64,000 nucleotides of DNA from a virus (IMGVR_UViG_3300031992_000080:12110-76109), one strand, 5' to 3'; shown: positions 17,844-62,078, counted from the stretch's first letter. The notes: a model not told the origin generated them from the letters alone. Translations and numbers: made by a program.

Positions 17844-17911
17844 CGGCCGACTGCGACAGATAGTTGCAGGCCTTGCGCGCGGATGGTTGCCGTGGGTCAG
17901 GATACGGAGCC

Positions 17912-24264: not shown

Positions 24265-24947
24265 CGCCTCTTGCCGGAACGATCGACGCGGTCCGCATCG
24301 CGGACATCCTGTCGCGCGCCGTCATGGACTACATCCGGGACGACCAGCGCGCGAGCTATCCGCTCACGGGCGACGTCTGGATGGTCGCGCGCAGCAAGCG
24401 CGCGTGGAAGAAAATCAAGGACGGTTTCGAGCGCTACACGACCGCGGACGGCGCGATCTCCCTCTACAAGCTGCCGGACGGCGTCATCAAGGCCGTCGCG
24501 CACCAGTTCCCCCGTTCCAAGAATCTCTGGAACGGGCCTGACCTTCTCCGGAACAACAAGCTCGCGAGCATGTTCGCGAGCCTTTTCCACGATTTGATTT
24601 GGGGGCATCGCCGCGAGCTGGCGGAGGCGCTGGGCATCTCCGTGCCGGACGTGCTTCGCATCGGCAACGACCTGTTCATCCAGGCGTGGCGGGCAATCGA
24701 CGGAAGTTTCAAGGGCAAGGTCGAGAGCTGGATCGCGTTCCAAGCCGTCTCCGCCGCGACTCCGTGGTATCACAAGCTCAAGGGGTCCGCGCTCGCGCTT
24801 GTCGCGCTTGGTCTCATCTCCGGGTGCTACTCGGTGCCGGAAGGGGAAGTGCTGGAAGTCGGCGGCGTCGAGGTCGTCGAGCAGATCATGAAGGAATACG
24901 GCGACGGTTTGAAGCCCGTCGCGCAGGACGAGGACGATTCGAAATGA
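24261..24947 (+). CDS. DUF1353-like protein with C-terminal hydrophobic segment plus Cys
   Basis: WNGPD...ASLFHDLIW...GNDLF motif; later ALALVALGLISGC. Confidence 0.5.
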   Translation: MTPLAGTIDAVRIADILSRAVMDYIRDDQRASYPLTGDVWMVARSKRAWKKIKDGFERYTTADGAISLYKLPDGVIKAVAHQFPRSKNLWNGPDLLRNNKLASMFASLFHDLIWGHRRELAEALGISVPDVLRIGNDLFIQAWRAIDGSFKGKVESWIAFQAVSAATPWYHKLKGSALALVALGLISGCYSVPEGEVLEVGGVEVVEQIMKEYGDGLKPVAQDEDDSK

Positions 24948-25342
24948 GCGAACGCAAGGCCACGGACAAGCAGCGCTCGTGGTGCGGGGACCACGTCCCC
25001 AATCCGGCGCAATACCGCTACGGGATGATTCCCGGAACCGAACGGCCGGAGATCGAAAGCACGGTCGAGCTGTCGGAGAAGGAGGTCGAGACGATCAGGA
25101 CGCGCATCCGGGATCTCGGCGCTCGGTTCGCGATCGTGCGTCCGACACCGCGCGACCCGGGACACCTCGACGTGGAGTTCCGTTCGGCGCGCCCGTTCGA
25201 GCGCATCCGCCGCATCACCGGCTATCTCGTGGGCACGTTGGACCGCTGGAATTCGGCCAAGCAAGCCGAGGAGCGCGACCGCGTGAAGCACGGGATTCCG
25301 AATCCGGAAGAGGAAGTCAACCTGCATATCAAGGAGGACTAG
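24944..25342 (+). CDS. Stand-alone NrdD C-terminal glycyl-radical-like domain
   Basis: FERIRRITGYLVGTLDRWNSAKQAEERDRVKH matches the class III RNR C-terminus; only 132 aa. Confidence 0.7.
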   Translation: MSERKATDKQRSWCGDHVPNPAQYRYGMIPGTERPEIESTVELSEKEVETIRTRIRDLGARFAIVRPTPRDPGHLDVEFRSARPFERIRRITGYLVGTLDRWNSAKQAEERDRVKHGIPNPEEEVNLHIKED

Positions 25343-45449: not shown

Positions 45450-48400
45450 ATGTCAACCGACAATCTTGGCCTACCGACCTCCCTCGACGAAGAAGAGAAG
45501 AACCGGTCCGCGCTCGAGGAGGCCGAGCGGGCCGCATCGGCCGCGCGGGCGCCGCTGCCGAGCGCGGACGAGCCGGAGTCGGATTTGTCCGCACAGGTCG
45601 ATCCGGTTGCGGACGCGAGCGACGTGCCACGGGACGAACCCGTCCCAGCTCCGGAGCCGAGCCCCGCTTTCGCGGACGAGCAACCGGTCCCGCCGCCGGA
45701 CGAAAGGCCGGAGGAATCCGCCGATTCTTCTCCAGCCACGTCCGAGCCGGAGAAAATCCAGCCGGAATGGGATTCCGAAAACGGTTGGGAGGAAGGGTGG
45801 GAGGACCGCGAAGACCGGCGTCCGGGAGAGGACGACTGGACCACGCTTCGCCGCCACAACCTGGCCGACATCGGCAACGAGCTGGCCGTCATTGCAAACG
45901 CGGCGCGCTCGAACGAGACCGTAGACCGGACTTTTCGTTCCATTGACGGCTTCGGCGGCGCCGGCGCGGACGAGATGCTGGACATTCTCGCGAACGGAAC
46001 GGATCGCTTCCTCGACCGGGACGATACGGTTGCACAAGACCTCTACAAGACGCTGGAACGCGCAACGGACGGCATCTACTCGCAGCTCGGCGGCAAGATC
46101 GAGGATTTCTGGATCGGAAACCGGCGCGTCGTCCATGACGATTACGCCTTTGGCGTCGTCCGCGACCAGCAGGACGTCGACGACCGCCGCCGGTTCATGG
46201 ACGAACAGGACGCCCGCGCACGGCAAATGGCGAAGGAGGTCGCGTTTCTCAAGCAGAACCACGACCGTTCGCTTTTCGGGCGCATGCTTTGGCATGTCCG
46301 AAATGACGAGGACTGGAACGATGAAAGATTCGGCGTGTTCGACGGAACGAACAAGCTCACGCTGAACGAAATCGAAGAAGTCGCCGGCATGAGCGGCTTC
46401 AAAGAAGCGAAGAATCACGTGGCGCAGGAGCGCTTCGACGCCCTTGCCAAAGCCGTCCACGAGCGCTACCTCAAGGAACGCGGGGAGCGGTCGGTCTTGG
46501 AGGCGGCGTCGGACAATTTCCGCGGCGGCCTCGTCGAGCTCGGCACGATGGAGGAAAGCCTGCGGAACCTTCTCGTCAACGGCGGAAGCGGCGAGGCTTT
46601 CATGCGCCGCGCCCGCGAGCTCAAGGACGTGGAAGAGCTCAATGCCGCCGAGACGCCGACGGGCCGCGATTTCACGGAGATCGGCGGGCCGCTCGAAGCG
46701 CTCGGGTGGATGTTCCAGCAGTTTTCGCGCCTCGCCCCGCAGATGATCGCCCAGTTCGGCATCGCGCTCGGGACGGGCGGCGCGGGCAATCTCGCGGCCG
46801 GAGCGGCAGGGCGCATGGGCGCCTCCGCCGCGACGAAGGCGGCGATCCGCTCGGGCTTTTCGCGTGTCGGCGGCTACGCGACGACGGTCGCGCTCGACGT
46901 GGCCGACGTGACCGGACAACTCGCGGGAGAAGCCGCCGAGCGCGGGCAGGAAGGAATCGACCTGGGGGAGCTGGCGCTCGTTTCCGTGCCGTTCGTCGGC
47001 GCGGACCTCTACGGCTCGATCGGGCGCGGCGTCCGGCGCGCGGCCGGGAAGGCGGCCGGCGACATCGCGCGCGACATGGCGAAGAGCGCGCAGGTCTACA
47101 CGGCGCGCGGGTTCTGGCACGACGTCCTGCGCGGCTCCACGAGGGTTCTCAAGGACGCGGGGCTCGAAGGCGCGACGGAGGCGGCGCAGGACTGGTTCGT
47201 CCGCCTCGGCAACCTCGGCAAGAACGGGACGCTGGCGCTGGCGGGGCAGGGCGAAGAGAGCTTCGACGTGTTCGACGCCATGCTCGGGAGCGCGGAGACG
47301 TTTTTTGCGGCGGCCGCAAGCGGCGGCGCCGGCGCAATCGGGAGCTATGCGAATTTCGGGAAGAACTCTTCGTTCACGGGCGAGTATTGGCAGCAGAAGC
47401 GCCAGTTCGAGCGAAGCGCCCCGCGCGTGGACCGCTACATGGGCTGGGAGGCCGGTACGACGGCCCGGATCGTCCGCGCCGGAAAGGCGGGGTCGGACGT
47501 GGAGTCCGCTCGCAACGGCTACGGCTCCGTCCTCGCGGAAATCCTGCGCGACCAGGCGGCGGGCAACGCAACGCGGCTCGACGCGCTGGATGCGACCCTG
47601 CTCGGGCAGGCGATCGTGGCCGGGCAGGCGATCAAAGACCTTGAGTCCGTGTCCCGCAACGCCGAGAGGAGCCTTGCCGCGGTCCGCGCCGGCGCGCGAA
47701 TCGAAAAAAAGGACAAGGACGGAAATCCGACGGGCGAGTTCTACACGGCCGAGGAGCTTCTCCGCTTCAAGGAGCGGACGGACCACGCGCTGGAGAACGC
47801 GCGTGGCGTCAAGTCGCAGAAGCGCGACAACATGGGCGACAACGCGAAGGGCATCCTCGACGCGCTGGACGCGACGATCGGCGGTCCGACCCTTGCGGAA
47901 GGCGTCCGCATGCAGCGCGAGCGCGTGGCCGCCGGCGCGCAAGCCGACCCGATCCGCACGGAAGGGTTCGACGTGCCGGTCGTGCCGCCGTCGGTGGACG
48001 AGCGCACGGGCGTCGTGACGACCGTCTACATGGAGCGCGAGCAGGAGGGGTCGAGCCACCGGATGCAGATCGTGGAGACGCTCGACCCGGATTCCGGCGA
48101 CATCGTCTACCGCGTGAAGAACCTTCGCTCGGACGCACGGCCCGCCGACGCGGCGAGCGAGTTCCTGGCGCGCGACTTCGGCGGCGACGACAAGGCCGCT
48201 CTCGCTGCGGCCCTCGACTTCGCGCGCGACTACGCGGACTGGTCGGCCGTCGGCGCGGCCGCCAACGAGGCGTTCGACCGCGCGGCCGCTTCCTACGTGG
48301 AGGCGAACTATCCCGGGCGCCTGGCGATCTGCGCGGACAACGAGACGGAGCTTTTCGCGAAGCTCGCGGACGCCGGGATCGACCTCGCGAGCGGCGACTA

Positions 48401-51400
48401 CAGGACCGACACGGACGAACGGCTGCGCTCCCTGTTCCACGGGAGCCAGGAGAGCGCACTCACCGTCCCGCCGCTCGCCGACCGCGACGGCCCGGTCTTT
48501 TCCGTGATCGTGCGAGCCCGCAACGCGACGCCCGCTACCCTCGCGGCGACCCTCGACCACGAGACGATGCACGTGGATTTCGCGCGCCGGATCCAAGAGG
48601 CGGTCTCCCGGCGAGAAAACCCGAAGACGGGCCGCATGGAGCTTGCGAACAAGCCGCTTCTGGACGAGCTGTTCGCCGGCTGGAAGAAGCCGGACGGCAC
48701 GCCGATCGACCCGGCGGAGCTTTCCCCGGCCTTCCTGCAGCGCCGCGTCCGCGTGGCCCTTCTCGGACTGGACCGCGACGGGAGGGGCAACCCGCTCTCG
48801 CAGGAAGCCGTCCTTGAGGCCATGGCGGACGACGAGGCGCAGGAGCGCGAGGAGGAACTCTACGCCTACGCGACGGAGAGCGTGAACGCGGGCGCTTCGG
48901 AGGGCACCGGCCTCGTGGCGGGGCTCGTCCATCCGTTCCGCGCGCGCAAGATGCGAATCCTGCGGCAGACGCACCCGGAGCTCGTGAAGTTCGCCGGCGC
49001 CTACGTGGCCGGGCGTCTCGGTGCCTTTACCGGCGGAATGGGCGGAGGGGTCGTGACCGACATGTGGGAGGACACGGCCGCGACGGACGACGAGATCGCG
49101 GACTATCTCTTCCGGCTTCGCCAGCCACCGGCGAGCGACTACGCGCCCAATCCGCACGCGGACGATCCGGAAGGGGCCCGCCGCGCGCTCGGCGTGGAAC
49201 CCTCCGCGCCGGAGGAAGGCAGGACGAGCGGGGCCGGCGAAAGCGGCTCTCCCGGCGCTCCCGCGCCCGCGGAGCGCAACTACGCCTCGCGCGAAGAAAT
49301 CGTGGCGGACCTCGCGGCTGCGAGGGAGAACATGGCCGGTCTCCGCAGGGCCAACGCGGAGTCCTCGCAGATCGACGAGGCGGCGAGCCGCGTCCGGCGC
49401 TTGCAGGGCATCCTGCGCGAGTGGGACGAATCGCACCGCGAGGCGCCGCGAGACGCGCGCCCCGCGCCCCGCGGGGCGCCGGCGGAGGCGCCGCAACCGC
49501 AACGACCCGCGCCCGCGGAAACGAGCCCGCAGGAAAACCGGACGGGTTCGAAAGCCCCGGAGGAGCCTGCGCCAAGCGCGACGCCGGAGCCCGCTCCCGC
49601 GGAGCCGCGGCCGATCCCGAAGGGGGACGGGCGGGCGCGCGTCCCGGCCGCCGGCAAGGGCAAGGTGTCGATGAAGTCGCCTGACCGCTCGGAGAGCTTC
49701 GACGGGACGGTCGCCTACATGGATCTCGGGGACATCGTGAACGACCAGGTTCCCGGGTTCGACATGGCGTTCCAGAACCGCGGGCAGAACGACGCGGCTC
49801 GCGAGGTGAAGGCGAAGCAGATCGGGATGAACCCCGACGCCGACACGCTCACGGACGCCGGGACGATGATCGACGAAGGGACGATCGTCGTTGCGAAGGT
49901 CGACGGCAAATTCATGGTGATCGCCGGAAACACGCGCGCGTGGGGCCTGCAGCTCGCCGCGCAGCTCGGAAAGCTCGGACCCGTGACGGAGCGCGTCCGG
50001 GCGGACGCCGCCATGGATGGCGTGGATCTTTCCGGAATGGCGAACCCCGTGAAGGTGCGCGTTCTCTCGGCCTCCTACACGCACGAACAGCTCGAACACA
50101 TCGCGGAGGTGTCCAACCGCCAGAGCAAGAACCGCGTGGCGGACGAGAACCTCGCGCTCGACGATGCGAAGAAGATTCTCTCCGGCAAGAAGATCAAGGG
50201 CGCGTCCGGCTCGCTTCTGGACATGTTCGCTCCGGGGCCGGACGGCCAGCTCGACAACGCGAGCAACCGCGACTTCATGATGGCGTTCATCGCGGAGACT
50301 GGAGACAACGCCCTGCTCGGCAAGGACAAGGACGGGCGTCCGATCCCGAACGCGCAGGCATACGCGCGGGCGCAACGCGCGCTCGTGGCGGCGGTCCTCT
50401 TCGGCGAGAACGCCGACCGCGCGGAGACGGCGCGGATGCTCGGCGCGCTCATGGGCGAAGGCGCGGGCATGAAGAAGCTCGCCGCCGGCATTGCGGCTGC
50501 GGCCCCTTCGCTCGTCGCGGCCTTCCGCGGAAACAAGGCGTTCGACCTTTCGCCGGAACTCCGCGCCGCGTTGAACGAAATCGCGCAGGCGCGCGCGGAC
50601 GGCGTGACCGTGGACGATCGCTTCGCGCAAGCCACGATGGACCTCGGTGACGAGTCCGCCGCGAAGACCGGACCGAACGCGCCCGCGCTCGTCAAAGACA
50701 TCGCCCGCGCCCTCTGGAGCCGTGGCGTCGGAACCGGCAGGGGCGTTTCCGGGAAGGCCGTGCGGGAGCTGTTGCTCGACTACGCCGAGCGCGTCTACCG
50801 CCCCGCCAAAGGAACGCAGCCCGCATGGAAGCTCCCTGCGGAAGATGGCGAAGGCCTTTTTGGAGACGCGCTCCGCAACACGAAGCAGTCCGTGTGGAAC
50901 GCGGCGCTCGCGGCAGCCATGAGGGACGATCAGGGCCTCGGCCTGCGCTCACGCAACGGCGAAGCAGGCATCCGCGCCCGGAACGACGACGGGAGCCTCA
51001 AGATCGCGTCGCACGAGCGCAAGCAGGTGCTAGCGGACGCGGAGCGCAAATTCGGGAAGAAGCCACTCGTGCAGGTGCCGCCGCGCGATCGCATCCAGAC
51101 CGTGTTCGTGCAGAGTCGCAAGGCGCTCGGCGCGGCCGGCGTCCAGCCGTCCGCCGCCATGTCGGACGCGACGGCCGAGATCGTCTACCGCTACGACGGC
51201 GACGGCAAGGCGTTCGTCCTTGCGCGTCTCCCTGCGGAATATCCGGGTCTGGACCGCCAGCGCTACATGTTCGGCAGCAAAGAAGCAGACGAGGCGGCGA
51301 AGCGGCGCGAGCGCCGGGAGCTGGGGCGCATTGCGCGCCGGAACAACGGCAACGGCCGCTTCGACGGGATCTTCCAGCCGCTGCTCCTCGGGCCGGGCCC

Positions 51401-54400
51401 GCGCGCGCGGAACGGGGAGTTCTCGCCGCAGACGCCGGCGTTCAAGGCGCAGCTGGACGATGTGATCGCCCGCTACAAGGGGACGCCGCAGTGGCTCAAG
51501 GCCCCGAACGGGAAGGACTCCATCCTCGCGGCGACGCCGGACTACGGCCCGCTGCTCTGGGCGACCGTCCGCACGCAGAGCTTCAAGGACTGGTTCGGGG
51601 ATTGGGAGAACGATCCAGCGAACGCGAGCAAGGTCGTGGACGCGAACGGCGAGCCGCGCGTGGTGTACCACGGGACGGGAAGCGAGGAGGAGTTCGAGTC
51701 CTTCGACCGCAACCGCGTCGGTTCGCGGTTCGAGAACGTGGACGTCGACTACAACTTCTTCTTCACGGCGTCCGAACTTGCGGCCGAAGGTTATGGGGAA
51801 GTGTATCCATTCTTCCTCAACATCCGCAACCCGGAGATTCGCAACGTCAGGTTCGAGGAAGGCGAAGAAGAGGTTGGCGACCTCGACCTCCACGAGGACA
51901 TCATAAACGCCCACGACTTCGGCTCGGGTCAAATCGAACGCTCCGGCGCAAAACCGGAGAATGCCGACGGGCTCATCATGGGCGCGTTCCGCACGCCACC
52001 GCAGGCGGAAAGGGAAATCACCGAGCGCCACGCAAGGGAGATTCGGCCGGAACTTGAGCGTCTCCAGAAGGTCGACGAGGACGACATGGCGCTCCGCGAC
52101 GAGAAAGACGCGCTGTGGCAGTCCGGCCTCGACGCGACGGTCAAAGCGCTGCGCGACGACGACAACGAGGCTACGCGAGACTTGATCCGCGACCTGCCGG
52201 ATGATGCCGTTCGCGAAATCGCCAGGATCAAGTACAGGGAAGAGTTCAACGGGCTTCCGCGCGTAAAGGAAATAAACGAGATTCTCAAGCGTCACGGCAG
52301 GGAGGATCGCGAAACGCGGCTTCGCCTTGCGGACAAGCTGAACGCGGAGCTTGCGGCCGCGGGCCGCGAAACGCTTGATTCGGCGAATATATACGCGGTC
52401 GACGATCCGAACAACATCAAGTCCATCTTCAACTCGGGCGCGTTCTCCGCGTCCGACTCGCGGGTGAGGGCGCGTGGAGGGGAAATCGGTGGTGCACGCC
52501 TCGGGATCACGGCAGATGAAGCCAAGCGAATGGAGGCGGCTGGCGCGACGCGGGAAGAGATTTGGCGCGCAACAGGATGGTGGCGCGGCAAGGACGGAAA
52601 GTGGGGATTCGAGCTTGATCCGATTCCGTTAGAGGAGTTTGATAAGATCTACGGAATCCTAAAAAAGGAGCTTCGTGAACATCCTCTGCGGTACAACAAT
52701 ATACATGAGCCGAAGTTGGCTGGAAGGAAATATGCTGGTGTCTTCATGGAACAGGCCGCAGAGAAGTCTCCGTGGCTCCATCGACTGCTGCTTGCCTATC
52801 CGAGGCTGAGAAATGTCGGACTTGCCGCATGGCCCAGCAAAAGAGTGCTTGGCAAATACTACGGCGTGACGAGATTCCATCCCCTCCGTCCGTTGGGGAA
52901 TGGGCAGTTCGATCCGGTTGACATCCATATCGGATTGCAGTTCCGAAAGAAGGAGTCAATCTGGCTGACCTTCATGCACGAGATTCAGCATACAATTCAG
53001 GCATATGAAGGATTCCCGAACGGCAATGCGTCCGAGAAAGCCGTCGTGGCAGAAGATCCGTCTGGTGGAGAGGATGGTGAAATCGAAGCGCAGCTCGTTT
53101 CCCTCCGCGCAACCATGACTGAGGACGAACGCCGTTCGGAGCCGCCGTGGGAAACAGAGCGGCGGATGCTTGAACGAGAAAGGGAAAACGATGCCCTTGC
53201 GAGCATTTTGACAAAGGCAAAAGTACCGGAACGCGAATTCGTCCGGAAGACGGGCGGTTTGTATTCTCTTGCGCAAGAAAGAATCTTGGACAATCCTCCG
53301 ATGACGCGCGAGGAGGTTATTGATTATGTGAACCAAATCGCGAAGAGCATCGGCGCGGAACCGCTGCGCGTTCGGCAAGGCGATTCAAATATGCGCGAAT
53401 CCAGCGTTCGCGCCCGCAACTCCGTCTCCGTTGCGGCGGCGGGGCGGCTCGGCATCACGAACGAGGAGGCGGAGCGGCTTGAGCGTGAGGGATACTTCCC
53501 GGACGAGATCTTCCGCCGCACGCGCTGGTATCGCGGCGTGAAGGACGACGAGTGGCGCTACGAGCTGGAGCCGGTTCAGCTCCGTCCGTGGCTCACGGCG
53601 TGGGGCGACGCGCCCGTGCGCAGGGCCGGAGGAAAGCGGCGCGCGATCGCGGACATCATCGGGGAGGACTCCCCGTTCCTGCGCGCCTACCCGGCCGCGC
53701 GCAACATCACGGTCGAGATCAAGGAGAACAAGGACGGCGGCGAGGGCGAACTCGTCGGCGACCGCATCACGGTCTGGGGCCGCAAGGGCCAGACGCTCGC
53801 GGAGTTCGCGCAGGACAAGGGCGATAACGGCCTGCTCAACAGCCTCGTGCACGAGCTCCAGCATTGGGTGCAGAACCAGGAGGGCTGGCCGGAGGGCTCG
53901 TCCCCGGGGAACTTCCGGTCCGACCGGAAGTCGAGGCGGCTTCGGCAGGCGGAGAACGAGCGGAGCCAGGCGTTCTGGAACGCCCGCCGTCTCGCCGCGC
54001 AGCACGGCTACGATACTTCTCCCGATGCGGTCGAGGATCGCGCCCGCCGCGGCGGGGACGAAGCCGCGGTCTCTGACATGGAGGCACTGCTTCCCGAGCA
54101 AGGCGAAACCGCCGCGGAGGAAGAGCCGTGGGTGGCGGACCTTCGCGAGCGCGTCGGACGCTACCGGCAGGCCGTCGCGAACGTGAAGCGGATCGCAGAC
54201 GAGGACGGCTACCAGACCGCGTGGGACAAATACAACCGCGTTGCCGGCGAGGTGGAGTCGCGCAACGCGGGAAGCCGCGCCGCCATGAGTTCAGGGGAAG
54301 CGGCGGAGAATCCGCCGTGGACGACGATGGATGTATCGCCTCTGCGACAGACGATCGTCCGCAACGGCGAGGTCGTCGCGGCGAACGCGCGTCCTGCCGG

Positions 54401-57400
54401 CCGCCAGAAGCAGGCCGGCGTGGCCTACCCGGACGCCCGCGCGGAGATCGAGGCGCTCGACCTGCGCCCCGGCCTCGGAACGAGCGCCGAGGTGCGAGCC
54501 CGGAACCGCGACGAAATCATGGGCGTGCTTTCCAGCAAGCGCCCCGACCTCGACGCCGGCGCCGTCGCGGACGAAATCCTCAAGTTCGCCACGCCAAAAG
54601 AGCGCAAGCTCGCCCTGCATTGGGTCGTGCGCGGTGCGATCCGCCTGCCGGAGGACGCCTACAAGGTCGAGGACGCCGTTTCTGTGGCGGAGAAGGCGAA
54701 AGTCGATCCGTTCCGGTATGCCTCGCCGCTCGCGCTCCTGGAGGCGCACAAGCAGTTCAAGCCGAGTGCGCGTCCGATCGACCCCGCCACGGTGCCGGAA
54801 CTGACCGACCAGCGCGACGAGGGCGACGGAATCGTGTCCTACCTCGTGCAGGACGACCGGCAGGGGCAGGCGGCCATGCGGAAAATCATCGACACGCATT
54901 GGGGCGAGGACGCGAACCCGTGGTGCCTGCTGGCAAAGAAAAAGAAGTGGACGTATGTCGAACTCACCAACGACTATGACGCCTATCAGGAAATGGAGCG
55001 CTGGTGGGCGCAGCTCCCGCATGACGAACGAGTCAGGATCGCCGGCGACCGAGCGGACGAGGAAAGCGTCATGGACGCAGACCCGGCGTCGGAATACTAT
55101 GTTGACAACGTGGTTGACAATCCAGTTTCCTTGGACGATGCCTGGGACTACTGGCAGCATTACTCCGCCCTCCCGAAGCGCGTCGCGTTCAAGGACGGGA
55201 AGCTGCTCGCGTTCATGGCGACGGAGGACAAGGGCGACGATGCCGTGAACCTTGAAGACCGGCTCGAAGAACTGCGGTCGGAATTGCGTGGCGAAAGAGG
55301 CATGGTCGAAACAGGAAACTTCGCAAGGGAGTCCGAATACTGGGAGGCGAAGGAAAACGACGACCAAGCAACAATAGACGAAATCGTCAACGAATGGGAT
55401 GAGTGGGTTGACAGTGATGCCGTTTCAGCAAGTTATGATGACGAAAGAGGCGTTGCTACCATTCGCAACTATGAAGGAGATTCCTTCTTCGACGAAGACG
55501 AGAATGGGAATCCTCGCGAATACCGCCGCCGCGCCGATGGCTCGTATGTCTTCGGCGGAGAGGCGGAGGAAGAATGGTGGGACCGTCAGGACGTTTCGCA
55601 CCCGAACCTCGACTGGGCGCGTGGCGATGCGTCTGGCGTTCGTGCGCGCAACGCGGACGAGACGATGGCTGCGCGGCTCGGGCTCGGCAACGCGGACGAG
55701 GCGCGCCGCATGGAGCGCGAGGGCGCGAGCCGGCTCGACATCTGGCGCCGGACGGGTTGGTGGAAGCGCCCCGAGGACGGAATGTGGCGCATCGAGCTGC
55801 CCCCGCTCAAGTTCAAGACCGGTGCGTTCGAGCGGCTCTACGCATCCATCCACGCGAACCAGCAAAAGCTCAAGGGGTCGAAGTATACCCAGAAGAACCT
55901 GCCAACCTACGAGGATTGGCGCAGGGCGCTTGAAAGCGGAGGAAACGACGATCAATACACGGCACCCGCGGCGAAGATTGTCAGCGCGCTTTTCGAGACA
56001 GTTGCCGTGTGGTCTGCTGTTGAGATCCATAAGGCCGAAACGGGTGGAACGCAGGCATCCGGTCCGCACCGCTCGTGGTTCTACGATGATACAAGGCGTG
56101 ACAAATATGGCGCAATGCCGCGAGAGGACTATGAGACCGTTGTAGCCGCCATCAAAGAATGGAAAGCACAGCACCCGGAGCAGGCGCGAATCCTCCAAGA
56201 AGCGGAACGCCCACGTGTCAGTTCCTATGACTGGGGGAATATCGTCGAGCGTGCGCGTAAACTCATCTACAACATGAAGCACGGTGCGGCCGCTCCACGG
56301 GAATTGCAGGGCAAGCTCCGAATGCGCTGGGCCGACATCGCGGCGGACGAGAACCGTGTTGAACGCCCGAATACTCTGCGCGAGCTTCTTTCCGACGACG
56401 ATCCGGTGCTCAAGGCTCTCCCGGAGCTTGGAGACTTCCCGATCGTGTTCCAGAGCGATACTGGCCGCTACGGAGGCTGGGCCGGCACAGACAACATCAC
56501 GCTCAACACAATCTGGACGAACGACAGGATGGGTGCGACCGATGCGGTGTTCGACACGCGGAAGACGCTTGCGCACGAGATCCAGCACAAGGTCCAGGCC
56601 GCCGTCGGGTTCATGCGTGGCGTAAACCCGGATGCGGTGAAGAGGGCGCGAGAAGATCGCTCGTATCGGTACGATCCTTGGACGAACGAGCAGCTGCGCG
56701 GAGACGAAAACCTCACGCCGGAACAGGTCTACATGGGCTGGGGTGGCGAGGTCGAGGCCCGCGCGGTCGAAGCCCGCATGCACCTCACGGACGAGCAGCG
56801 CAAGGAAATCCCGCCGTGGGTCACGGAAGAGGTTGTTCGCGAGGATAAGTTCGGAAAGCGCACAGACTACTCCTACGCGGCGCAGAAGCGCGCGATGGAA
56901 GAGATGCAGTGGGTCGAGGAATCTTCGGTCAACGATCCGAACGGGCCGCAATACAGGCCGTTGTCAGGCGAGCAGGCGCAGACGGAGCGCCGCCCGCTTG
57001 GCAATCCAGAGCAGCTCACGTTCGACTTCATCCCGCCGACGGAGTCCGTAGTGGAATCCGTGTCCGACGCAATGAACCTCGGCGGCGTTCGTGCGCGGAA
57101 CGGGGAGTTCGCGACCGCGCCGGAGGACATCGGCCGCAGGGTGATGGGCTACAATGTCGGGACGCGCGCGCCGGACCTCACGCCGGTCGACGTAACGAAC
57201 AGCCGGACGGGCAAGCCGGAGCGCGCGATTGCGTTCCCCGGCGACCGGCCGGAGGGCTACGTCCCGTCCCGCATCGGCTACGCCTACAAGCTCATGGAGC
57301 AATGGCCGGACGGCTCGCTGCACGCGCTCTTCGCGAACGTGGCCGACACCGTTCCGCAGAACGAGTGGATGTTCGCCGCCGGCTTCCCACTCACGGACCG

Positions 57401-60400
57401 CAACGTGAATGGCATGAAGCTGCGCCAGCGCTACGCCTGGCATCTCGGCTTCGGCCTGCCGACGGCCCCGCACCTGATGTCAAGCAAGGACTATGGGCGC
57501 GGCTACCCGACGGGCGCAGAGAACGGCAAGGGGCATCCGAAGGGAAGCCGGCGCGTCTGGGTGCGCGTCGCGTTCGACGCGAGCAACGACTGGAACGCCG
57601 CGATGGACCGCGTGAGCGGGCGCGAGGGCGGCGACCCATACGGGCTGATCCCATTCGGCGGCTACTATGGCTTCATCGAGGGGAACAAGAGCAACTGGAT
57701 CCTGTCCAGCGCCGTGAAGTTCGACAAGGTCCTCTCGGAGGACGAGCGCCAGGAGATTCTCCGCGGCGCGGGCTTCGACGAGCGGGCCGCGTGGGAGCAG
57801 CGGCATGGTGGCAAGAAGCTCGGCGCAAAGAATCAGGCGTCCAAGCCGGCCGACAAGATCGCCGCCCTGCGGGAGCTGCGCGACCGGATCGCAAGGTCGG
57901 TCGTGGACAACCCGGAGCAGGCCGCGCCGGGTGCGCGCGCCCGCAACGATGCGGAGGCCATTGCCGCGTTCAACGCACTCCCGCCATACCCGGAAATCGA
58001 GGAGCACAGAGCCAATAGGCGCGCCGCCGAGACCAAGGAGGACCTGAATGCGGAATTCGACCGGTGGTACGCCGCTCTTGAAGTCAGGAATGCCGCGCTC
58101 GAGAAGTGGGTCGCCGCGGCTCCAGACTTCCTCGTATTTTCGGAGAAGGGCGTTGCGAAGCCGGATCCGAACGGCGGCGTCTACGGATCGCTCCTTGCAT
58201 GGATCGTCTCCCCGGACAAGTGGTACGAGGGGAACCAGCATAGCCGGCCGTGGCGCGTCACGTCGGTCTTCCGAACCGGGCGCGTGTCGAAGGACGGATA
58301 CGAGGAGCTCGTTCCGTCCGGTCATAGCTTCTACGACACGAAGAAGGACGCAGTTTTTTCGATCGGGCAAGTGATAAGCGGAACGGCGGAGTATGCTCCC
58401 GGAATCCGCGCGCGGAACGGGCAGGCCTACTACGGGGAGCTGTTCCCGGAAATGGGCGTGGACGCGGCGAACCGTCCGTTCGCGTTCACGCAGGCCGAAA
58501 TCCTCGCACGCATGCGCGGGTTGATTCCTGGCTACGACTACAAGCCTGAGCACATCGAGGAGATCGAATACATCCGCAAGGGCATGGAGATCCTGGAGCG
58601 CGACCCGGACGCGGTGGACAACATCCGCCGCAAGACGGTCGGCGTAAACCGCCCCGCCCCGCTTTCGCCCGACGAGCAATACGTCCTCTACACGATGCAG
58701 TATTGCGCGGAGAAGGACTTGGAGACCGCCATCGGGATCCGCAGGAAGATCGAGCGCTCCGGAGCGGCGGTCCCAGGGCAGCTCGCGGCGGCGAAGGCGT
58801 TGGAGGAAGCCGCGGAGGCGGAGGCGCTCTCGCTCGCGCTCACGTCGCAGCGGGTCGGCTCGGCGCTCGGCCGCGCGCTCGCGTTCCGCCAGGTCGCCTA
58901 CCGCTGGAACGGAATGCTCTCCTACGAAGGGCTCGTCCGTTCGTTCAACCGCTCGCTCCGGCGCACGGCCGAACGCTACGGCGGCATCGGAATCGCGGTC
59001 GATCCGAACGCGCTCAAGCTCACGGACGAGGACCGCGAGCAGATCCGCAGGATTTTCGAGGCGGTCGTGGCCGCGCAGCGCCAATACGAGCAGGCGAAGA
59101 ACGCGGCGACCGCCGCGGACGCCCTCCGGCAGCTCATGGCGATCATGCGCTCCATGGACCGCTACATCCGCAACGCGAACCGCAAGCCGCTCGGGAAGCC
59201 GACCAAGCCAAAGAAGCTTCTTCCGGAAGCGGACCTCATGGCGCAGCTTTCGCGCCTCGCGGACGAAGAGTTCGGCCTTGAAGCCGCGTCCGGAAACCTC
59301 GATCCGCGCGACCGCACGGCTTGGGCGCGCGCGGCGAACATCGTGAAACTCGTCGGCAACTGGATTCTCTCCAACGACATCGCGCAGAACCGGCCGCTCC
59401 GCTCCGCGGAAAGCTTCCGGCAGGAGCTCTTCGACCGCTGCGACGCGATTCTCGGGCGCTACATCCAGCTTTCGGCCCGAGAATACGGGGAGATATTCTC
59501 CGACTACGGCATGGTTCGCGAGGCGAGCAAGAACGAGCTGTTCGTCAGGCGCACGAAGGTGAACCAGGCCCTGCGCCTGCTCTCGCAGATCGCGGCCGTC
59601 GAGCGCGGGGACGCCCCGCGGCGCACCGGGCAGCAGCGCGTCGAGGGGACGGACGAGCAGACGGACCTGGAGCGCCGGCTGCACGTCCTGCTCAAGGAAC
59701 TGGACCCGGAGGCCGAGCGCGCCCTGCGTCGGGGAGGCGAGCCGTCGGACCGGTTCGTGAAGACGCCCCTGCAAATCTGGCGAGACGCTGCCGAGAAGGA
59801 AATCCGCATGCTCGAAACCGCAATCGCGACGGGCGTGGAACTGGAACGCAACCAGATTCCGCTTCAACTCGGCGAAGAGGAAATGTCCCTCAAGGAGCTG
59901 CTCGAACTCAAGCGCCAGCGGTATAGGGAAATGTTCGTCCTTCCGAAGACGGAGGAGGAGCAGGTCCAGGCGTATCTGCGGCAGCTCGTGAACCGCGAAA
60001 ACGCGCTACTGGCGGAGCTGGACGCGGCGAGGCGCGGCGAGTTCAAGCACCGCGAGGACAAGAACGCGCGCGCCAAGCAGGACTCGCGCGTCCAGGCACT
60101 GCAACGCGAAATCGCAGCGATCCGAGAGGAAATCCAGGCGGAACGCGACCTGCAGGGAGACGCGCTCTCCACGCGCAACAAGCGGATCAAGGCGGTCCTC
60201 AACGGCATCCAGCGCAGCATGGCGAACGCCAACGCGTGGATCGAGAACCCGGAGCTCTACTTCGAGCAGCAGGAGCGCCGGCGCAAGTCGCAGGAGGACA
60301 TCGAGAACGACCCGGCCGTCAAGGAGGCGCGCCGGGCGCAGCGCGAGATTCTGGAAAAGTGGGAAGCGGTGCGCGAAGAGCGCGCCTACAAGAAACTCAA

Positions 60401-62078
60401 CGCGCTCGGAAAGGGCGTCGCGGCCGTCGGCGGACTCCGCGACGCGATCAAGGTGTTCCTCGCCTCGGGCGACATCTCGGGCGTCGGCGTCCAATGCGCG
60501 CTTGCGGTGCTGGACCTCGGGCCGGCCGAAGCTCTCAAGGCAATCCGCGTCGGCATCGGCGCGCTCGCCGGCGGCAAGAACGCCGTCTTCGGAAAACTCT
60601 CCGAAGGAAAGACGGCCGAAGAGTTCGCGCGGGAAAAGTTCGACGAGCTCGTCAAGAACAACACGTTCCTGCGGGAAGCGGTCGACGAATACGGGGTCCA
60701 CATCTCGACCGTCGAGGCGAACGGGCGCTACGACAACTCGGAAGAAGGCTTCGCGCGCGGCTACGCGACGCGGCGCGCCGAAGAATGGATGCAGCGCAAC
60801 CTCGGCGCCGTCGGGCGCGCGGCCAAGGGCTACGTGGACCGCTCCGACCGCGCGTTCGCGCTCCCGGCCGACATCCTCCGCCTCGCGCTCTGCAAGAAGC
60901 TCGCGGATGCGTCCGCGGAACTCAAGGGCGGCGCTCTCACGGCGGCCGAAAAGAAATACATCGGCCGCATCGTGAATGCCGCCACGGGGCGCGGCGACTT
61001 CTTCGGACACGCCGGATTCTCCGCGGCCCTCTCGCGCTTCTTCTGGGCGCCGGCGCGCTTCTCCGGCCAGCTCCAGATGCTCGCGCTCCCGTTCACCATG
61101 CTCGTGCACAAGGACGTGAGCGGGCGCGTGAAAGCCGCGATTGCCCGCAAGTTCCTGGTCCGAACCATGGCCAACTACGGAATCGCCGTGATGATCGCCT
61201 ACCTTCTCAAGCAGGCGTTCGGGGACGACGACGACGACGGACCGCTGATGGAGACGGATCCGCGCAGCGCCAAGTTCGGGCGCATCAACCTCGGCGGGCG
61301 CATGTTCTCGCTCACGGGCGGACTGGAAAGCTACATCACACTTGGCGCGCGCGTTCTCTCTGGAGAGACTAAGACCAAGAACGGCGACATCATGAAAGTC
61401 GGACAGGGCGGAGATTCCCGCTTCGGCCTCGTCTGGCGGATGTTCGAGAACAAGATGACGCCGGACGTGAACATTCTCCGCCAGATGATCAACAAGAAGA
61501 AGACGACTGGCGAACGGATCGAAGGCTTCTTCGGCAAGAACGGATACCTTTCCGTCATTGCCGGAAACTCGATCTTCCCGCTGACCGTCTCCGACATGGT
61601 GGACGTGCTCAAAGACGACAAGCCCGGACTCGCGGAAAAGGCGTTCCTCGCCGGAATCACGGTTCTTGGCTACAACTCGACGGACTTCGGCTACAACGAC
61701 TACGACGCGCACGCGCATCGGTTCGACCGGGCGCACCGCGCGCTCCGCGACGCCAAGACGCCGGCCGAACGGAGGCGCGTCATGGAAAGCGAACTTGGCC
61801 CCTACGCCGCGCAGGACGCGCGCGGGGAAGCGCTCCGGCACGAGCGCCGGCAGATCGACGTTGCGCTGCGGACCGAACGCGACCCGAACCGGCGCGCGGC
61901 GCTGCTGGCCCGCCGCGACCGCAACGAAATCCGCTTCCTCGCGCTCTGGCGCGAAGGCCTGCGCGAAGAAGCGGAATCGTGGACGCCCGACATGGACGAG
62001 GCGCTCAAGCGGGCAGGGGCCGAAATTCGCCGGATGCCGGAAGAAGAGCGGGAGTCGCGACCGCTGAACTACTGGTAG
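45450..62078 (+). CDS. Giant polyvalent / internal virion protein (5542 aa): HExxH peptidase-like, ParB-like, ADP-ribosyltransferase-like, 3x LPD23-like plus HExQH modules
   Basis: HETMH (48558); VIAGNTR ParB-like (about 49.9 kb); VRTQSFKDWFGDWE...VVYHGT...FF...YPFFLNIRNP...IKS (51.4-52.45 kb); three EA.R.E..G...I...T.W repeats each followed by HE(I/L)QH and GE(I/V)E(A/S). Confidence 0.85.
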   Translation: MSTDNLGLPTSLDEEEKNRSALEEAERAASAARAPLPSADEPESDLSAQVDPVADASDVPRDEPVPAPEPSPAFADEQPVPPPDERPEESADSSPATSEPEKIQPEWDSENGWEEGWEDREDRRPGEDDWTTLRRHNLADIGNELAVIANAARSNETVDRTFRSIDGFGGAGADEMLDILANGTDRFLDRDDTVAQDLYKTLERATDGIYSQLGGKIEDFWIGNRRVVHDDYAFGVVRDQQDVDDRRRFMDEQDARARQMAKEVAFLKQNHDRSLFGRMLWHVRNDEDWNDERFGVFDGTNKLTLNEIEEVAGMSGFKEAKNHVAQERFDALAKAVHERYLKERGERSVLEAASDNFRGGLVELGTMEESLRNLLVNGGSGEAFMRRARELKDVEELNAAETPTGRDFTEIGGPLEALGWMFQQFSRLAPQMIAQFGIALGTGGAGNLAAGAAGRMGASAATKAAIRSGFSRVGGYATTVALDVADVTGQLAGEAAERGQEGIDLGELALVSVPFVGADLYGSIGRGVRRAAGKAAGDIARDMAKSAQVYTARGFWHDVLRGSTRVLKDAGLEGATEAAQDWFVRLGNLGKNGTLALAGQGEESFDVFDAMLGSAETFFAAAASGGAGAIGSYANFGKNSSFTGEYWQQKRQFERSAPRVDRYMGWEAGTTARIVRAGKAGSDVESARNGYGSVLAEILRDQAAGNATRLDALDATLLGQAIVAGQAIKDLESVSRNAERSLAAVRAGARIEKKDKDGNPTGEFYTAEELLRFKERTDHALENARGVKSQKRDNMGDNAKGILDALDATIGGPTLAEGVRMQRERVAAGAQADPIRTEGFDVPVVPPSVDERTGVVTTVYMEREQEGSSHRMQIVETLDPDSGDIVYRVKNLRSDARPADAASEFLARDFGGDDKAALAAALDFARDYADWSAVGAAANEAFDRAAASYVEANYPGRLAICADNETELFAKLADAGIDLASGDYRTDTDERLRSLFHGSQESALTVPPLADRDGPVFSVIVRARNATPATLAATLDHETMHVDFARRIQEAVSRRENPKTGRMELANKPLLDELFAGWKKPDGTPIDPAELSPAFLQRRVRVALLGLDRDGRGNPLSQEAVLEAMADDEAQEREEELYAYATESVNAGASEGTGLVAGLVHPFRARKMRILRQTHPELVKFAGAYVAGRLGAFTGGMGGGVVTDMWEDTAATDDEIADYLFRLRQPPASDYAPNPHADDPEGARRALGVEPSAPEEGRTSGAGESGSPGAPAPAERNYASREEIVADLAAARENMAGLRRANAESSQIDEAASRVRRLQGILREWDESHREAPRDARPAPRGAPAEAPQPQRPAPAETSPQENRTGSKAPEEPAPSATPEPAPAEPRPIPKGDGRARVPAAGKGKVSMKSPDRSESFDGTVAYMDLGDIVNDQVPGFDMAFQNRGQNDAAREVKAKQIGMNPDADTLTDAGTMIDEGTIVVAKVDGKFMVIAGNTRAWGLQLAAQLGKLGPVTERVRADAAMDGVDLSGMANPVKVRVLSASYTHEQLEHIAEVSNRQSKNRVADENLALDDAKKILSGKKIKGASGSLLDMFAPGPDGQLDNASNRDFMMAFIAETGDNALLGKDKDGRPIPNAQAYARAQRALVAAVLFGENADRAETARMLGALMGEGAGMKKLAAGIAAAAPSLVAAFRGNKAFDLSPELRAALNEIAQARADGVTVDDRFAQATMDLGDESAAKTGPNAPALVKDIARALWSRGVGTGRGVSGKAVRELLLDYAERVYRPAKGTQPAWKLPAEDGEGLFGDALRNTKQSVWNAALAAAMRDDQGLGLRSRNGEAGIRARNDDGSLKIASHERKQVLADAERKFGKKPLVQVPPRDRIQTVFVQSRKALGAAGVQPSAAMSDATAEIVYRYDGDGKAFVLARLPAEYPGLDRQRYMFGSKEADEAAKRRERRELGRIARRNNGNGRFDGIFQPLLLGPGPRARNGEFSPQTPAFKAQLDDVIARYKGTPQWLKAPNGKDSILAATPDYGPLLWATVRTQSFKDWFGDWENDPANASKVVDANGEPRVVYHGTGSEEEFESFDRNRVGSRFENVDVDYNFFFTASELAAEGYGEVYPFFLNIRNPEIRNVRFEEGEEEVGDLDLHEDIINAHDFGSGQIERSGAKPENADGLIMGAFRTPPQAEREITERHAREIRPELERLQKVDEDDMALRDEKDALWQSGLDATVKALRDDDNEATRDLIRDLPDDAVREIARIKYREEFNGLPRVKEINEILKRHGREDRETRLRLADKLNAELAAAGRETLDSANIYAVDDPNNIKSIFNSGAFSASDSRVRARGGEIGGARLGITADEAKRMEAAGATREEIWRATGWWRGKDGKWGFELDPIPLEEFDKIYGILKKELREHPLRYNNIHEPKLAGRKYAGVFMEQAAEKSPWLHRLLLAYPRLRNVGLAAWPSKRVLGKYYGVTRFHPLRPLGNGQFDPVDIHIGLQFRKKESIWLTFMHEIQHTIQAYEGFPNGNASEKAVVAEDPSGGEDGEIEAQLVSLRATMTEDERRSEPPWETERRMLERERENDALASILTKAKVPEREFVRKTGGLYSLAQERILDNPPMTREEVIDYVNQIAKSIGAEPLRVRQGDSNMRESSVRARNSVSVAAAGRLGITNEEAERLEREGYFPDEIFRRTRWYRGVKDDEWRYELEPVQLRPWLTAWGDAPVRRAGGKRRAIADIIGEDSPFLRAYPAARNITVEIKENKDGGEGELVGDRITVWGRKGQTLAEFAQDKGDNGLLNSLVHELQHWVQNQEGWPEGSSPGNFRSDRKSRRLRQAENERSQAFWNARRLAAQHGYDTSPDAVEDRARRGGDEAAVSDMEALLPEQGETAAEEEPWVADLRERVGRYRQAVANVKRIADEDGYQTAWDKYNRVAGEVESRNAGSRAAMSSGEAAENPPWTTMDVSPLRQTIVRNGEVVAANARPAGRQKQAGVAYPDARAEIEALDLRPGLGTSAEVRARNRDEIMGVLSSKRPDLDAGAVADEILKFATPKERKLALHWVVRGAIRLPEDAYKVEDAVSVAEKAKVDPFRYASPLALLEAHKQFKPSARPIDPATVPELTDQRDEGDGIVSYLVQDDRQGQAAMRKIIDTHWGEDANPWCLLAKKKKWTYVELTNDYDAYQEMERWWAQLPHDERVRIAGDRADEESVMDADPASEYYVDNVVDNPVSLDDAWDYWQHYSALPKRVAFKDGKLLAFMATEDKGDDAVNLEDRLEELRSELRGERGMVETGNFARESEYWEAKENDDQATIDEIVNEWDEWVDSDAVSASYDDERGVATIRNYEGDSFFDEDENGNPREYRRRADGSYVFGGEAEEEWWDRQDVSHPNLDWARGDASGVRARNADETMAARLGLGNADEARRMEREGASRLDIWRRTGWWKRPEDGMWRIELPPLKFKTGAFERLYASIHANQQKLKGSKYTQKNLPTYEDWRRALESGGNDDQYTAPAAKIVSALFETVAVWSAVEIHKAETGGTQASGPHRSWFYDDTRRDKYGAMPREDYETVVAAIKEWKAQHPEQARILQEAERPRVSSYDWGNIVERARKLIYNMKHGAAAPRELQGKLRMRWADIAADENRVERPNTLRELLSDDDPVLKALPELGDFPIVFQSDTGRYGGWAGTDNITLNTIWTNDRMGATDAVFDTRKTLAHEIQHKVQAAVGFMRGVNPDAVKRAREDRSYRYDPWTNEQLRGDENLTPEQVYMGWGGEVEARAVEARMHLTDEQRKEIPPWVTEEVVREDKFGKRTDYSYAAQKRAMEEMQWVEESSVNDPNGPQYRPLSGEQAQTERRPLGNPEQLTFDFIPPTESVVESVSDAMNLGGVRARNGEFATAPEDIGRRVMGYNVGTRAPDLTPVDVTNSRTGKPERAIAFPGDRPEGYVPSRIGYAYKLMEQWPDGSLHALFANVADTVPQNEWMFAAGFPLTDRNVNGMKLRQRYAWHLGFGLPTAPHLMSSKDYGRGYPTGAENGKGHPKGSRRVWVRVAFDASNDWNAAMDRVSGREGGDPYGLIPFGGYYGFIEGNKSNWILSSAVKFDKVLSEDERQEILRGAGFDERAAWEQRHGGKKLGAKNQASKPADKIAALRELRDRIARSVVDNPEQAAPGARARNDAEAIAAFNALPPYPEIEEHRANRRAAETKEDLNAEFDRWYAALEVRNAALEKWVAAAPDFLVFSEKGVAKPDPNGGVYGSLLAWIVSPDKWYEGNQHSRPWRVTSVFRTGRVSKDGYEELVPSGHSFYDTKKDAVFSIGQVISGTAEYAPGIRARNGQAYYGELFPEMGVDAANRPFAFTQAEILARMRGLIPGYDYKPEHIEEIEYIRKGMEILERDPDAVDNIRRKTVGVNRPAPLSPDEQYVLYTMQYCAEKDLETAIGIRRKIERSGAAVPGQLAAAKALEEAAEAEALSLALTSQRVGSALGRALAFRQVAYRWNGMLSYEGLVRSFNRSLRRTAERYGGIGIAVDPNALKLTDEDREQIRRIFEAVVAAQRQYEQAKNAATAADALRQLMAIMRSMDRYIRNANRKPLGKPTKPKKLLPEADLMAQLSRLADEEFGLEAASGNLDPRDRTAWARAANIVKLVGNWILSNDIAQNRPLRSAESFRQELFDRCDAILGRYIQLSAREYGEIFSDYGMVREASKNELFVRRTKVNQALRLLSQIAAVERGDAPRRTGQQRVEGTDEQTDLERRLHVLLKELDPEAERALRRGGEPSDRFVKTPLQIWRDAAEKEIRMLETAIATGVELERNQIPLQLGEEEMSLKELLELKRQRYREMFVLPKTEEEQVQAYLRQLVNRENALLAELDAARRGEFKHREDKNARAKQDSRVQALQREIAAIREEIQAERDLQGDALSTRNKRIKAVLNGIQRSMANANAWIENPELYFEQQERRRKSQEDIENDPAVKEARRAQREILEKWEAVREERAYKKLNALGKGVAAVGGLRDAIKVFLASGDISGVGVQCALAVLDLGPAEALKAIRVGIGALAGGKNAVFGKLSEGKTAEEFAREKFDELVKNNTFLREAVDEYGVHISTVEANGRYDNSEEGFARGYATRRAEEWMQRNLGAVGRAAKGYVDRSDRAFALPADILRLALCKKLADASAELKGGALTAAEKKYIGRIVNAATGRGDFFGHAGFSAALSRFFWAPARFSGQLQMLALPFTMLVHKDVSGRVKAAIARKFLVRTMANYGIAVMIAYLLKQAFGDDDDDGPLMETDPRSAKFGRINLGGRMFSLTGGLESYITLGARVLSGETKTKNGDIMKVGQGGDSRFGLVWRMFENKMTPDVNILRQMINKKKTTGERIEGFFGKNGYLSVIAGNSIFPLTVSDMVDVLKDDKPGLAEKAFLAGITVLGYNSTDFGYNDYDAHAHRFDRAHRALRDAKTPAERRRVMESELGPYAAQDARGEALRHERRQIDVALRTERDPNRRAALLARRDRNEIRFLALWREGLREEAESWTPDMDEALKRAGAEIRRMPEEERESRPLNYW

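Follow-up and report, generated by a model that had tools for sequence, protein, structure and literature searches.

What does a four-residue peptide do when it recurs along a giant phage protein? The question is raised by a 64,000-nucleotide (nt) stretch of viral DNA (IMGVR_UViG_3300031992_000080:12110-76109; called the window below and numbered from its first letter), part of a 76,109-bp virus record that is rated 100% complete. One open reading frame (ORF) of the window, at 45450 to 62078, encodes a polyvalent protein of 5,542 amino acids (aa), here P0001, in which Arg-Ala-Arg-Asn (RARN) or a one-residue variant returns again and again. A preliminary description, made from the sequence alone, had listed 11 such sites and proposed that they are where one injected polyprotein is cut into separate anti-host effectors, possibly by its own HExxH domains, and that they may define an exchangeable cassette format. 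Our analysis gives good support to the motif as a selected junction signal, and cutting of the giant protein at its junction peptides, in the manner of a polyprotein, is predicted with a probability of about 0.5.

The motif is specific to the giant protein and conserved as a peptide

All 11 sites lie at the nucleotides listed for them and in the frame of the giant ORF. Nine are exact RARN (aa 1022, 1842, 1985, 2654, 3016, 3398, 3881, 4163, and 4320), and the variants are RSRN at aa 1833 and RARG at aa 2340. Composition predicts only 0.26 exact copies, and the maximum in 2,000 shuffles was 4. The rest of the genome, read as six-frame ORFs (85,138 residues), holds three RARN, none of them after V, I, or A, and the pattern [VIAL]R[ASF]R[NG] has 10 matches in the giant protein and a single one in the rest of the 76-kb genome, in an ORF that is probably on the wrong strand. 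Counted against proteome and shuffles, the motif is thus both enriched and specific to the giant protein.

Ten of the copies, all but that at aa 1022, are junction copies of the form [V/I/A/L/P]-R-[A/S]-R-[N/G], spaced by 143 to 483 aa. They are written in 8 distinct 12-mers, and their 45-nt DNA flanks are 32 to 35% identical, compared to 29 ± 7% for random in-frame pairs. With codons that differ and flanks at the random level, the motif is therefore not a DNA repeat, in agreement with the earlier suggestion that conservation is at the protein level, and the codon evidence indicates that it is under selection as a peptide. The sister clade whose version is RSRG (P0004, from JGI 3300028833, and P0009) allowed synonymous and amino acid changes to be compared. 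At its five junctions, Ser is encoded by AGC or TCN and Arg by AGG or CGN, and therefore the copies are not recent duplicates of each other. P0004 and P0009 are 73% identical overall, and at least 8 synonymous changes separate their five orthologous RSRG junctions, in which every amino acid is the same.

Junctions bound exchangeable modules

Placement at module boundaries holds for 10 of the 11 copies (aa 1833 to 4320) and fails for the one at aa 1022, which lies inside the HETMH domain. The ten copies delimit units of 143, 355, 314, 362, 382, 483, 282, and 157 aa, followed by a C-terminal unit of 1,223 aa (Table 1). Pfam matches to LPD23 start 13 to 17 residues after three of the copies, and the 10 residues upstream of junctions are rich in G, P, S, T, N, and D (0.49 versus 0.33 ± 0.05, p = 0.0004), with no enrichment downstream. 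Four junctions are covered by two AlphaFold models, one of aa 2975 to 3420 (46-row alignment; mean predicted local distance difference test score, pLDDT, 79.7) and one of aa 2325 to 2675 (9 rows; mean pLDDT 58.8). Three of the four lie where confidence is low, next to the N-terminal end of an ordered domain: the copy at aa 3398 is in a linker with pLDDT < 50 just before the first LPD23 helix, and those at aa 2340 and 2654 are in low-confidence stretches, with the ordered LPD23 part beginning two residues after RARG. The proposed match between domain limits and motif positions thus stands for these three and is less plain for the ordered junction at aa 3016.

P0004 and P0009 carry RSRG at their junctions, yet at the position equivalent to aa 1022 they have RERN and RERF, where P0002 and P0003 have RARN and RGKN. 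Since the homologues' own junction motif is missing from this position, the aa 1022 copy is an in-domain Arg-x-Arg; R1022 and R1024 are invariant in the alignment of the HETMH domain. In zincins, the strand preceding the active-site helix lines the substrate cleft. Here the string V-I-V-R-A-R-N stands 11 residues before HETMH, and its likeness to the junction peptide may be coincidence.

How are modules gained and lost? The blocks that P0001 and P0002 share are 77 to 99% identical. Three whole modules distinguish the two proteins, all of them ending at the motif: aa 2340 to 2653 and aa 4163 to 4319 are found only in P0001, and a 273-aa module only in P0002. The same pattern of module gain and loss separates P0019 from P0014 and P0007 from P0012. 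Across 8 close pairs of homologues, 26 of the 72 ends of homology blocks are no more than 10 aa away from a junction motif, where 2.0 would be expected (p ~4e-22, with ends that are not independent of each other). The remaining breakpoints lie inside modules, so the boundary rule is strong but not absolute; one such case is module M3, which downstream of aa 2118 is unrelated to the P0002 module (a longer insert there). That the motif bounds exchangeable modules is well supported by these alignments, which bear out the proposed cassette format and place breakpoints at the motif as had been expected of homologous proteins.

A clade-specific junction code

In total, 28 giant homologues sharing the central region were found, and 150 carriers of the central module M6 (aa 3020 to 3397) in a representative library. 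The most over-represented 4-mer in these homologues and M6 carriers is very often a junction peptide. A loose regular expression for the aromatic class of motifs was not discriminating; the test to rely on is the statistics of exact k-mers in each protein. Besides RARN in P0002 (6 copies) and P0003 (4 copies), the versions comprise V-RSRG in P0004 and P0009 (5 to 6 copies), RFSI in P0007 (4), I-RFK in P0008 (6), A-RSSIGG in P0013 (6), RHS[IV] in P0019 (6), RHSL in P0090 (5), RWSI in P0061 and P0067 (3, or 5 to 6 as RWS), RYS in P0160 (9), RFSK in P0125 and P0154 (5), FRS in P0034 (6), FASDESLRA in P0037 (4), and [I/V]-RFS-[V/I/L] in P0137 (12). In P0037 (aa 1445 to 2883), the junction element is longer than elsewhere, [K/R]-F-A-S-D-E-S-L-R-A in four repeats.

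A matrix of motif against protein shows that each protein uses its own version almost exclusively. The pattern [VILMA]R[AS]R[NG] occurs 10, 8, 4, 5, and 6 times in P0001, P0002, P0003, P0004, and P0009, respectively, and 0 to 1 time in 73 other giants, and the R-aromatic-S strings present in the RARN and RSRG proteins lie off the junctions. The exchange can be followed at single homologous places. Before the first helix of M6, the same junction reads RARN, RSRG, RFSI, RFAV, RFK, RSSI, RWSI, RYSI, or others; the start of LPD23 has RFSIAG, RYQIAG, or RHSF in different proteins versus RARN; and the tail of the ART module ends in D-I-RFSI, D-I-RSSI, or D-I-RFRS versus V-RARG. In a tree of the C-terminal region, the RARN clade and the RSRG clade each have 100/100 support, with FRS, RFAS, and RFK proteins outside, and P0002 retains one intermediate site, V-RFRN. 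These comparisons indicate that RARN is this clade's version of a widespread junction signal, whose common form is [V/I]-R-[F/Y/W/H]-S-[I/V], and a change of the motif as a set within clades is well supported by them. New here are the tie between RARN and the broad R-aromatic-S class, the codon-level evidence of peptide selection, and a cultured carrier.

Both in this genome and in seven related loci, the motif keeps to the middle of the giant protein (~aa 1430 to 3530 in the relatives); a neighboring gene has one stray match, and the conserved N- and C-terminal regions have none. The motif is not shared with the capsid, scaffold, or portal proteins of this genome and the seven loci. No further members of the RARN clade were found in IMG/VR, the JGI metagenomes, or the GTDB genomes. 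Within the protein database, the C-terminal region is common only to P0002, P0003, and P0034, and a tblastn search with the C-terminal region and M6 gave no match among cultured phages and plasmids.

Is the chain cut at its junctions?

The favored model is as follows. The central part (aa 1833 to 4320) is a string of nine exchangeable cargo modules, each placed after a flexible tail ending in [V/I/A]-R-A-R-N, and one common factor would read every junction. This reader would most likely be an endopeptidase that frees an N-terminal piece of ~200 kDa, separate cargo enzymes, and the 1,223-aa C-terminal piece, so that the chain would work like a viral polyprotein. Less firmly, the cutter may be the protein's own N-terminal HETMH zincin-like domain or a host protease, acting during or after delivery, because no recognizable head protease was found and the motif is in no other phage protein. 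A broader version, which we offer only tentatively, is that giant ejection proteins of podoviruses are true polyproteins with an evolvable junction code, cut by a co-evolving peptidase after injection. The ancestral site would then be [V/I]-R-aromatic-S, with clade derivatives such as RARN, and the peptidase could be in cis, the N-terminal HExxH domain being one example. A variable set of anti-host enzymes would be set free by the cuts, and insertion between two copies of the code would suffice to capture new cargo.

Several observations weigh against cleavage, or against particular cutters. In the AlphaFold model, a helix (pLDDT ~90) begins at the aa 3016 copy, and the conserved mini-peptide that precedes this copy is docked on M6 (pLDDT ~92), an arrangement as compatible with a structural element as with cutting. 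P0057, a 1,308-aa protein of a bacterial island beside GmrSD genes, begins with the mini-peptide and keeps RYS at this internal position. P0004, P0008, P0009, and P0013 have a clear code (RSRG, RFK, or RSSI) without any LPD23+HExQH module, and neither P0137, with 12 RFS junctions, nor gp68 of phage BF1-TP2, with 4 RFR junctions, has any HExxH. P0007 and P0019 have near-identical N-terminal HExxH regions, yet their codes are RFS and RHS. Pfam, PDB, and fold searches linked neither the HETMH nor the HExQH domains to any peptidase family or fold, and no cleavage product is on record for any carrier.

Which enzyme could read the junctions? The giant protein has four HExxH motifs. Three belong to LPD23+HExQH modules and show a gluzincin-like signature, H-E-x-Q-H with G-E-[V/I]-E further on. 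Given the carriers that do without them, these modules are optional cargo and unlikely to be the general reader. The preliminary idea of RARN as a self-cut site therefore keeps its first half, a recognition signal acting at the protein level at boundaries, and loses the HExQH modules as the general cutter. As P0137 and BF1-TP2 gp68 have a code without HExxH, cis cutting by a zincin cannot be general either. An N-terminal HExxH domain is present at a similar place (aa 650 to 1185) in many lineages, intact in 5 of 5 P0001-type and 27 of 27 P0007-type giants, and is the best cis candidate. For this clade, the HETMH-type domain is a possible cutter because its HExxH is intact in all five members.

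Pfam gave no match for the N-terminal HExxH regions of seven lineages, and the MPTase-PolyVal model (PF18818) matched nothing in the genome. Searches of PDB sequences with M4 and with the HETMH domain returned nothing meaningful, and an ESM Atlas feature search with the HETMH domain reached no named family. The fold search with the LPD23+HExQH model (mean pLDDT 58.8) matched helical hairpins only, a comparison of P0001-type and P0007-type N-terminal HExxH profiles, both thin, gave no link, and a word-indexed search for stand-alone LPD23+HExQH proteins gave a single match. The phage head protease and related families S78, S49, ClpP, and S77 (PF04586, PF01343, PF00574, and PF03420) had no match at E ≤ 1 in the complete genome; with capsid-module proteins that lack the motif, this makes a general head protease unlikely, and a protease of some unfamiliar family is conceivable. 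M6 was considered as the junction reader and rejected: no co-variation was seen between its conserved residues and the type of motif, and it is missing from P0024 to P0029 and BF1-TP2 gp68. A host protease or a non-cutting partner is possible as the reader.

Such a partner is the strongest alternative to cleavage, although we consider it rather unlikely. The junction peptide would be bound, not cut, by an assembly or packaging factor, a core protein, a chaperone, or the ejection channel, which would order, pack, or thread the whole chain. A common reader and clade-wise switching would be explained equally well, in most lineages the residues of the motif are alternately polar and hydrophobic, as in a short strand (I-R-F-S-I), one junction is modeled as ordered, and no protease was found among the families searched. 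No candidate partner is known, however, and structural contacts are presumably made by the conserved N- and C-terminal parts, which lack the motif; moreover, the ART and ParB-like modules are more plausible as free proteins, and M6 and M8 have stand-alone homologues.

Alternatively, the motif might be only a recombination joint, its peptide being without function. Module gain and loss do end at the motif, but the copies share no DNA past 12 bases, both Ser and both Arg codon families are used, and orthologous junctions gain synonymous and no amino acid changes. A 12-base patch that varies synonymously would be a poor target for recombination, and we regard this explanation as improbable. Slightly less likely again is that the motif caps the fold of each module as an intrinsic structural element, its first strand or N-cap, and was inherited with the modules. 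It does stand immediately before the first helix of LPD23 and M6, and N, G, or S as its last residue makes a good helix N-cap; against this, it is common to unrelated modules and switches as a set while the module folds stay conserved. The stand-alone M6 proteins (P0099, P0133, P0149, and P0169) start at the first helix with neither motif nor mini-peptide, and therefore the motif is unnecessary for the M6 fold; a cap is accordingly a quite doubtful account. A chance product of an Arg- and Ala-rich protein (9.6% Arg, 13% Ala) is extremely improbable given the 9 copies against 0.26, the shuffles, and the positions kept in P0002 and P0003.

Comparison with known systems

In RNA-virus polyproteins, such as those with picornavirus 3C or potyvirus NIa sites, one short motif stands at every junction and is specific to the lineage. 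The giant protein is similar in having a motif at all junctions that differs by lineage, the pattern expected for sites co-evolving with one protease. It differs in belonging to a double-stranded DNA phage, in carrying accessory cargo modules between conserved structural ends, and in being known from sequence alone.

Polyvalent proteins were defined by Iyer et al. (2017, PMC5512222), who proposed processing by zincin-like peptidases; a term search of the main text found no cleavage or junction motif named. Compared to the proteins as that main text presents them, P0001 likewise has ART-PolyVal, ddrB-ParB, LPD23, and HExxH in one phage polypeptide, probably delivered with the DNA, and differs in its defined junction peptide, the clade-specific variants, and the role at cassette boundaries. 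In the giant myovirus SPN3US, head and ejection proteins (gp245) are cut after AXE by a T4-type prohead protease (PMC10052503, PMC5694885). These too are internal, ejected virion proteins with a short recurring motif, but the SPN3US protease also cuts capsid proteins and mostly removes N-terminal propeptides, whereas the sites here are internal module joints, no head protease family was found, and the motif is in no other phage protein. The fused virion RNA polymerase polyprotein of some crAss-like phages, described as "likely cleaved into individual components" without a defined site (Drobysheva et al., preprint, 10.1101/2020.03.07.982082), resembles P0001 as a huge virion protein with a zincin-like domain nearby. 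The ART-PolyVal modules of the window match crAss-like proteins. One crAss-like protein, cr85_1, was tried as a carrier of the code and rejected, having a single junction-like site and no repeated code. A literature search for the motif strings found no paper naming such a site.

Polyvalent proteins are thought to be the main route by which phages and plasmids deliver ready-made counter-defense enzymes. Their processing has been an open guess since 2017, and the junction peptide makes it testable by predicting exact ends for each cargo module. The clade versions (RARN, RSRG, RSSI, RFK, RHS, RWS, and others) provide a natural series in which to find the reader by co-variation, and the cultured carrier BF1-TP2 gp68, with its RFR junctions, makes cleavage experiments practical. 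With the code, giant phage proteins that lack annotation, of which there are thousands, can be divided into functional units by a simple rule, and the way in which they gain new cargo becomes visible.

Module map and genome context

TABLE 1 Features of the giant gene and its upstream structural genes in the window (positions in nt unless marked aa)
Feature	Position	Strand	Remarks
SU10-type portal	17864-20377	same as giant gene	upstream of giant gene; Pfam phage-SU10 family
SU10-type adaptor	23797-24264	same as giant gene	upstream of giant gene; Pfam phage-SU10 family
Giant ORF, P0001	45450-62078	+	5,542 aa; polyvalent protein ending the structural module; from ORF list and translation
N-terminal 1,832 aa	45450-50945	+	no junction motif; conserved N-terminal region, HETMH domain, P/A-rich spacers, ddrB-ParB
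HETMH zincin-like domain	aa ~960-1260; HETMH at 48558-48572	+	intact HExxH in 5/5 members of the RARN and RSRG clades
RARN, aa 1022	48513-48524	+	in-domain copy just before the HETMH helix, no junction
ddrB-ParB	49701-50066	+	Pfam
Double junction, RSRN (aa 1833) and RARN (aa 1842)	50946-50984	+	5-residue spacer; same double site in P0002 with 8-residue spacer
M2 (aa 1846-1984)	50985-51401	+	flanked by junctions; no Pfam or PHROG match
Junction RARN, aa 1985	51402-51413	+	kept in P0002
M3 (aa 1989-2339), ART-PolyVal-like	51414-52466	+	PF18760, E = 1.4e-13
Junction RARG, aa 2340	52467-52478	+	pLDDT < 50 segment directly before the LPD23 fold
M4 (aa 2344-2653), LPD23 + HEIQH	52479-53408; HEIQH at 52977-52991	+	in P0001, missing from P0002
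Junction RARN, aa 2654	53409-53420	+	low-confidence model region
M5 (aa 2658-2974), LPD23 + HELQH	53421-54371; HELQH at 53850-53864	+	
Decayed junction V-R-N-G-E (aa 2975-2979)	54372-54386	+	RFSI, RYSL, or RSRG here in relatives
Mini-peptide G-x-QKQAG-x-x-YPDA-x-x-EI, ~36 aa	54387-54494	+	before M6; conserved across lineages
Junction RARN, aa 3016	54495-54506	+	homologues: RSRG, RFSI, RFK, RSSI, RWSI, others
M6 (aa 3020-3397)	54507-55640	+	conserved His3150, Cys3159 (T-H-W-G-x-D-A-N-P-W-C-L)
Junction RARN, aa 3398	55641-55652	+	same place: RSRN in P0002, RSRG in P0004, RFK in P0008
M7 (aa 3402-3880), LPD23 + HEIQH	55653-57089; HEIQH at 56574-56588	+	
Junction RARN, aa 3881	57090-57101	+	extra 273-aa module here in P0002, between RARG and RFRN
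M8 (aa 3885-4162)	57102-57935	+	core matches phrog_30118 (194 positions) and phrog_12224, stand-alone phage protein families
Junction RARN, aa 4163	57936-57947	+	
M9 (aa 4167-4319)	57948-58406	+	missing from P0002, deletion edge at motif
Junction RARN, aa 4320 (last)	58407-58418	+	
C-terminal region (aa 4324-5542)	58419-62075	+	conserved; helical, hydrophobic segments; no junction motif

Pfam recognizes ddrB-ParB (aa 1418 to 1539), ART-PolyVal (from aa 2064), and three LPD23 domains in the giant protein, the remainder being without a family, and at least two unrelated effector or LPD domains in one polypeptide of a phage or conjugative element are what defines a polyvalent protein. The term "anti-host effectors" for the cargo draws on the ART-PolyVal and ddrB-ParB matches and remains a putative label. 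In M3, the first 67 of 140 Pfam positions are matched, and its tail, NSGAFS followed further on by V, runs into the next junction; the same tail stands before RFSI, RSSI, and RFRS in other lineages. The mini-peptide is bracketed by two junction motifs in most lineages. The C-terminal region is 98.7% identical between P0001 and P0002, and the giant ORF has a GC content at third codon positions of 0.83.

Large genes without matches separate the SU10-type adaptor from the giant gene, and from these genes and the upstream portal and adaptor it follows that the giant gene closes the structural module of a podovirus. In the six related loci that include upstream DNA, the giant gene is preceded by genes of ~170 to 280 aa and ~630 to 775 aa and, where the loci reach far enough, by a further upstream gene of 760 to 1,390 aa. 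Pfam identifies the large gene as Phage_nozzle in two loci and the small one as T7_gp14 in two, and directly after the giant gene come an integrase, regulators, or host genes. By this synteny, the homologous giant gene in relatives is at the position of T7 gene 16. The upstream genes of the window fit in size but show no Pfam, PHROG, or BLASTP link to the upstream genes of relatives or to T7 genes, and for the window's own gene the T7-gene-16-like assignment is an analogy of position. The place of its gene at the end of the structural module and the synteny in relatives make it probable that virions contain the giant protein and eject it into the host cell.

The T7 gp16-type internal core or ejection protein is a candidate counterpart by the gene position seen in relatives, after the nozzle, T7_gp14, and ~700-aa gene. 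Both are large and have a conserved C-terminal region with hydrophobic segments; the giant protein differs in being ~4 times longer, with an inserted cargo array, and the window itself has no sequence match to T7 proteins.

Module M6 and carriers of the code elsewhere

M6 has 449 matches in the representative library and is present in one copy each in P0001 to P0023. It has an invariant Cys (aa 3159) and conserved His (aa 3150), Arg (aa 3144), Trp, Tyr, and Lys, and may possibly be a thiol-dependent enzyme. Pfam gave no match, and fold searches with its model (Foldseek against PDB, VIA wide, and ESM Atlas) gave no clear one, the best having Z 5.0, with weak GNAT-like rows. Stand-alone forms of M6 are fused to MORN, LRR, LRV, or HEAT repeats.

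In the cultured Bacteroides phage BF1-TP2 (PQ571263.1), gp68 (L012 4327-15228) is related to the Bacteroidota-type giants and is 3,633 aa long. It has four [I/V]-RFR-[E/S] junctions, with RFR at aa 1548, 1754, 2259, and 2480, and lacks both HExxH and M6; a literature search for this phage returned nothing relevant. In Pseudomonas phage F116, an LPD23+HELQH module opens a separate gene, p60 (L011 7435-12384), of 1,649 aa. There, a 37-residue leader ending in Q-Y-S-F-A-G precedes the module, so that a junction-like peptide stands near a natural N terminus, where it may mark a removable leader.

Two other genes of the window deserve mention. At its end, a 247-aa ORF (24599 to 25342) matches the final 32 positions of the NrdD family, which form the glycyl-radical tail, with the rest of the enzyme missing, and a fusion of GT25 and GT8 glycosyltransferases is encoded at 31460 to 32947, within the tail-gene region.

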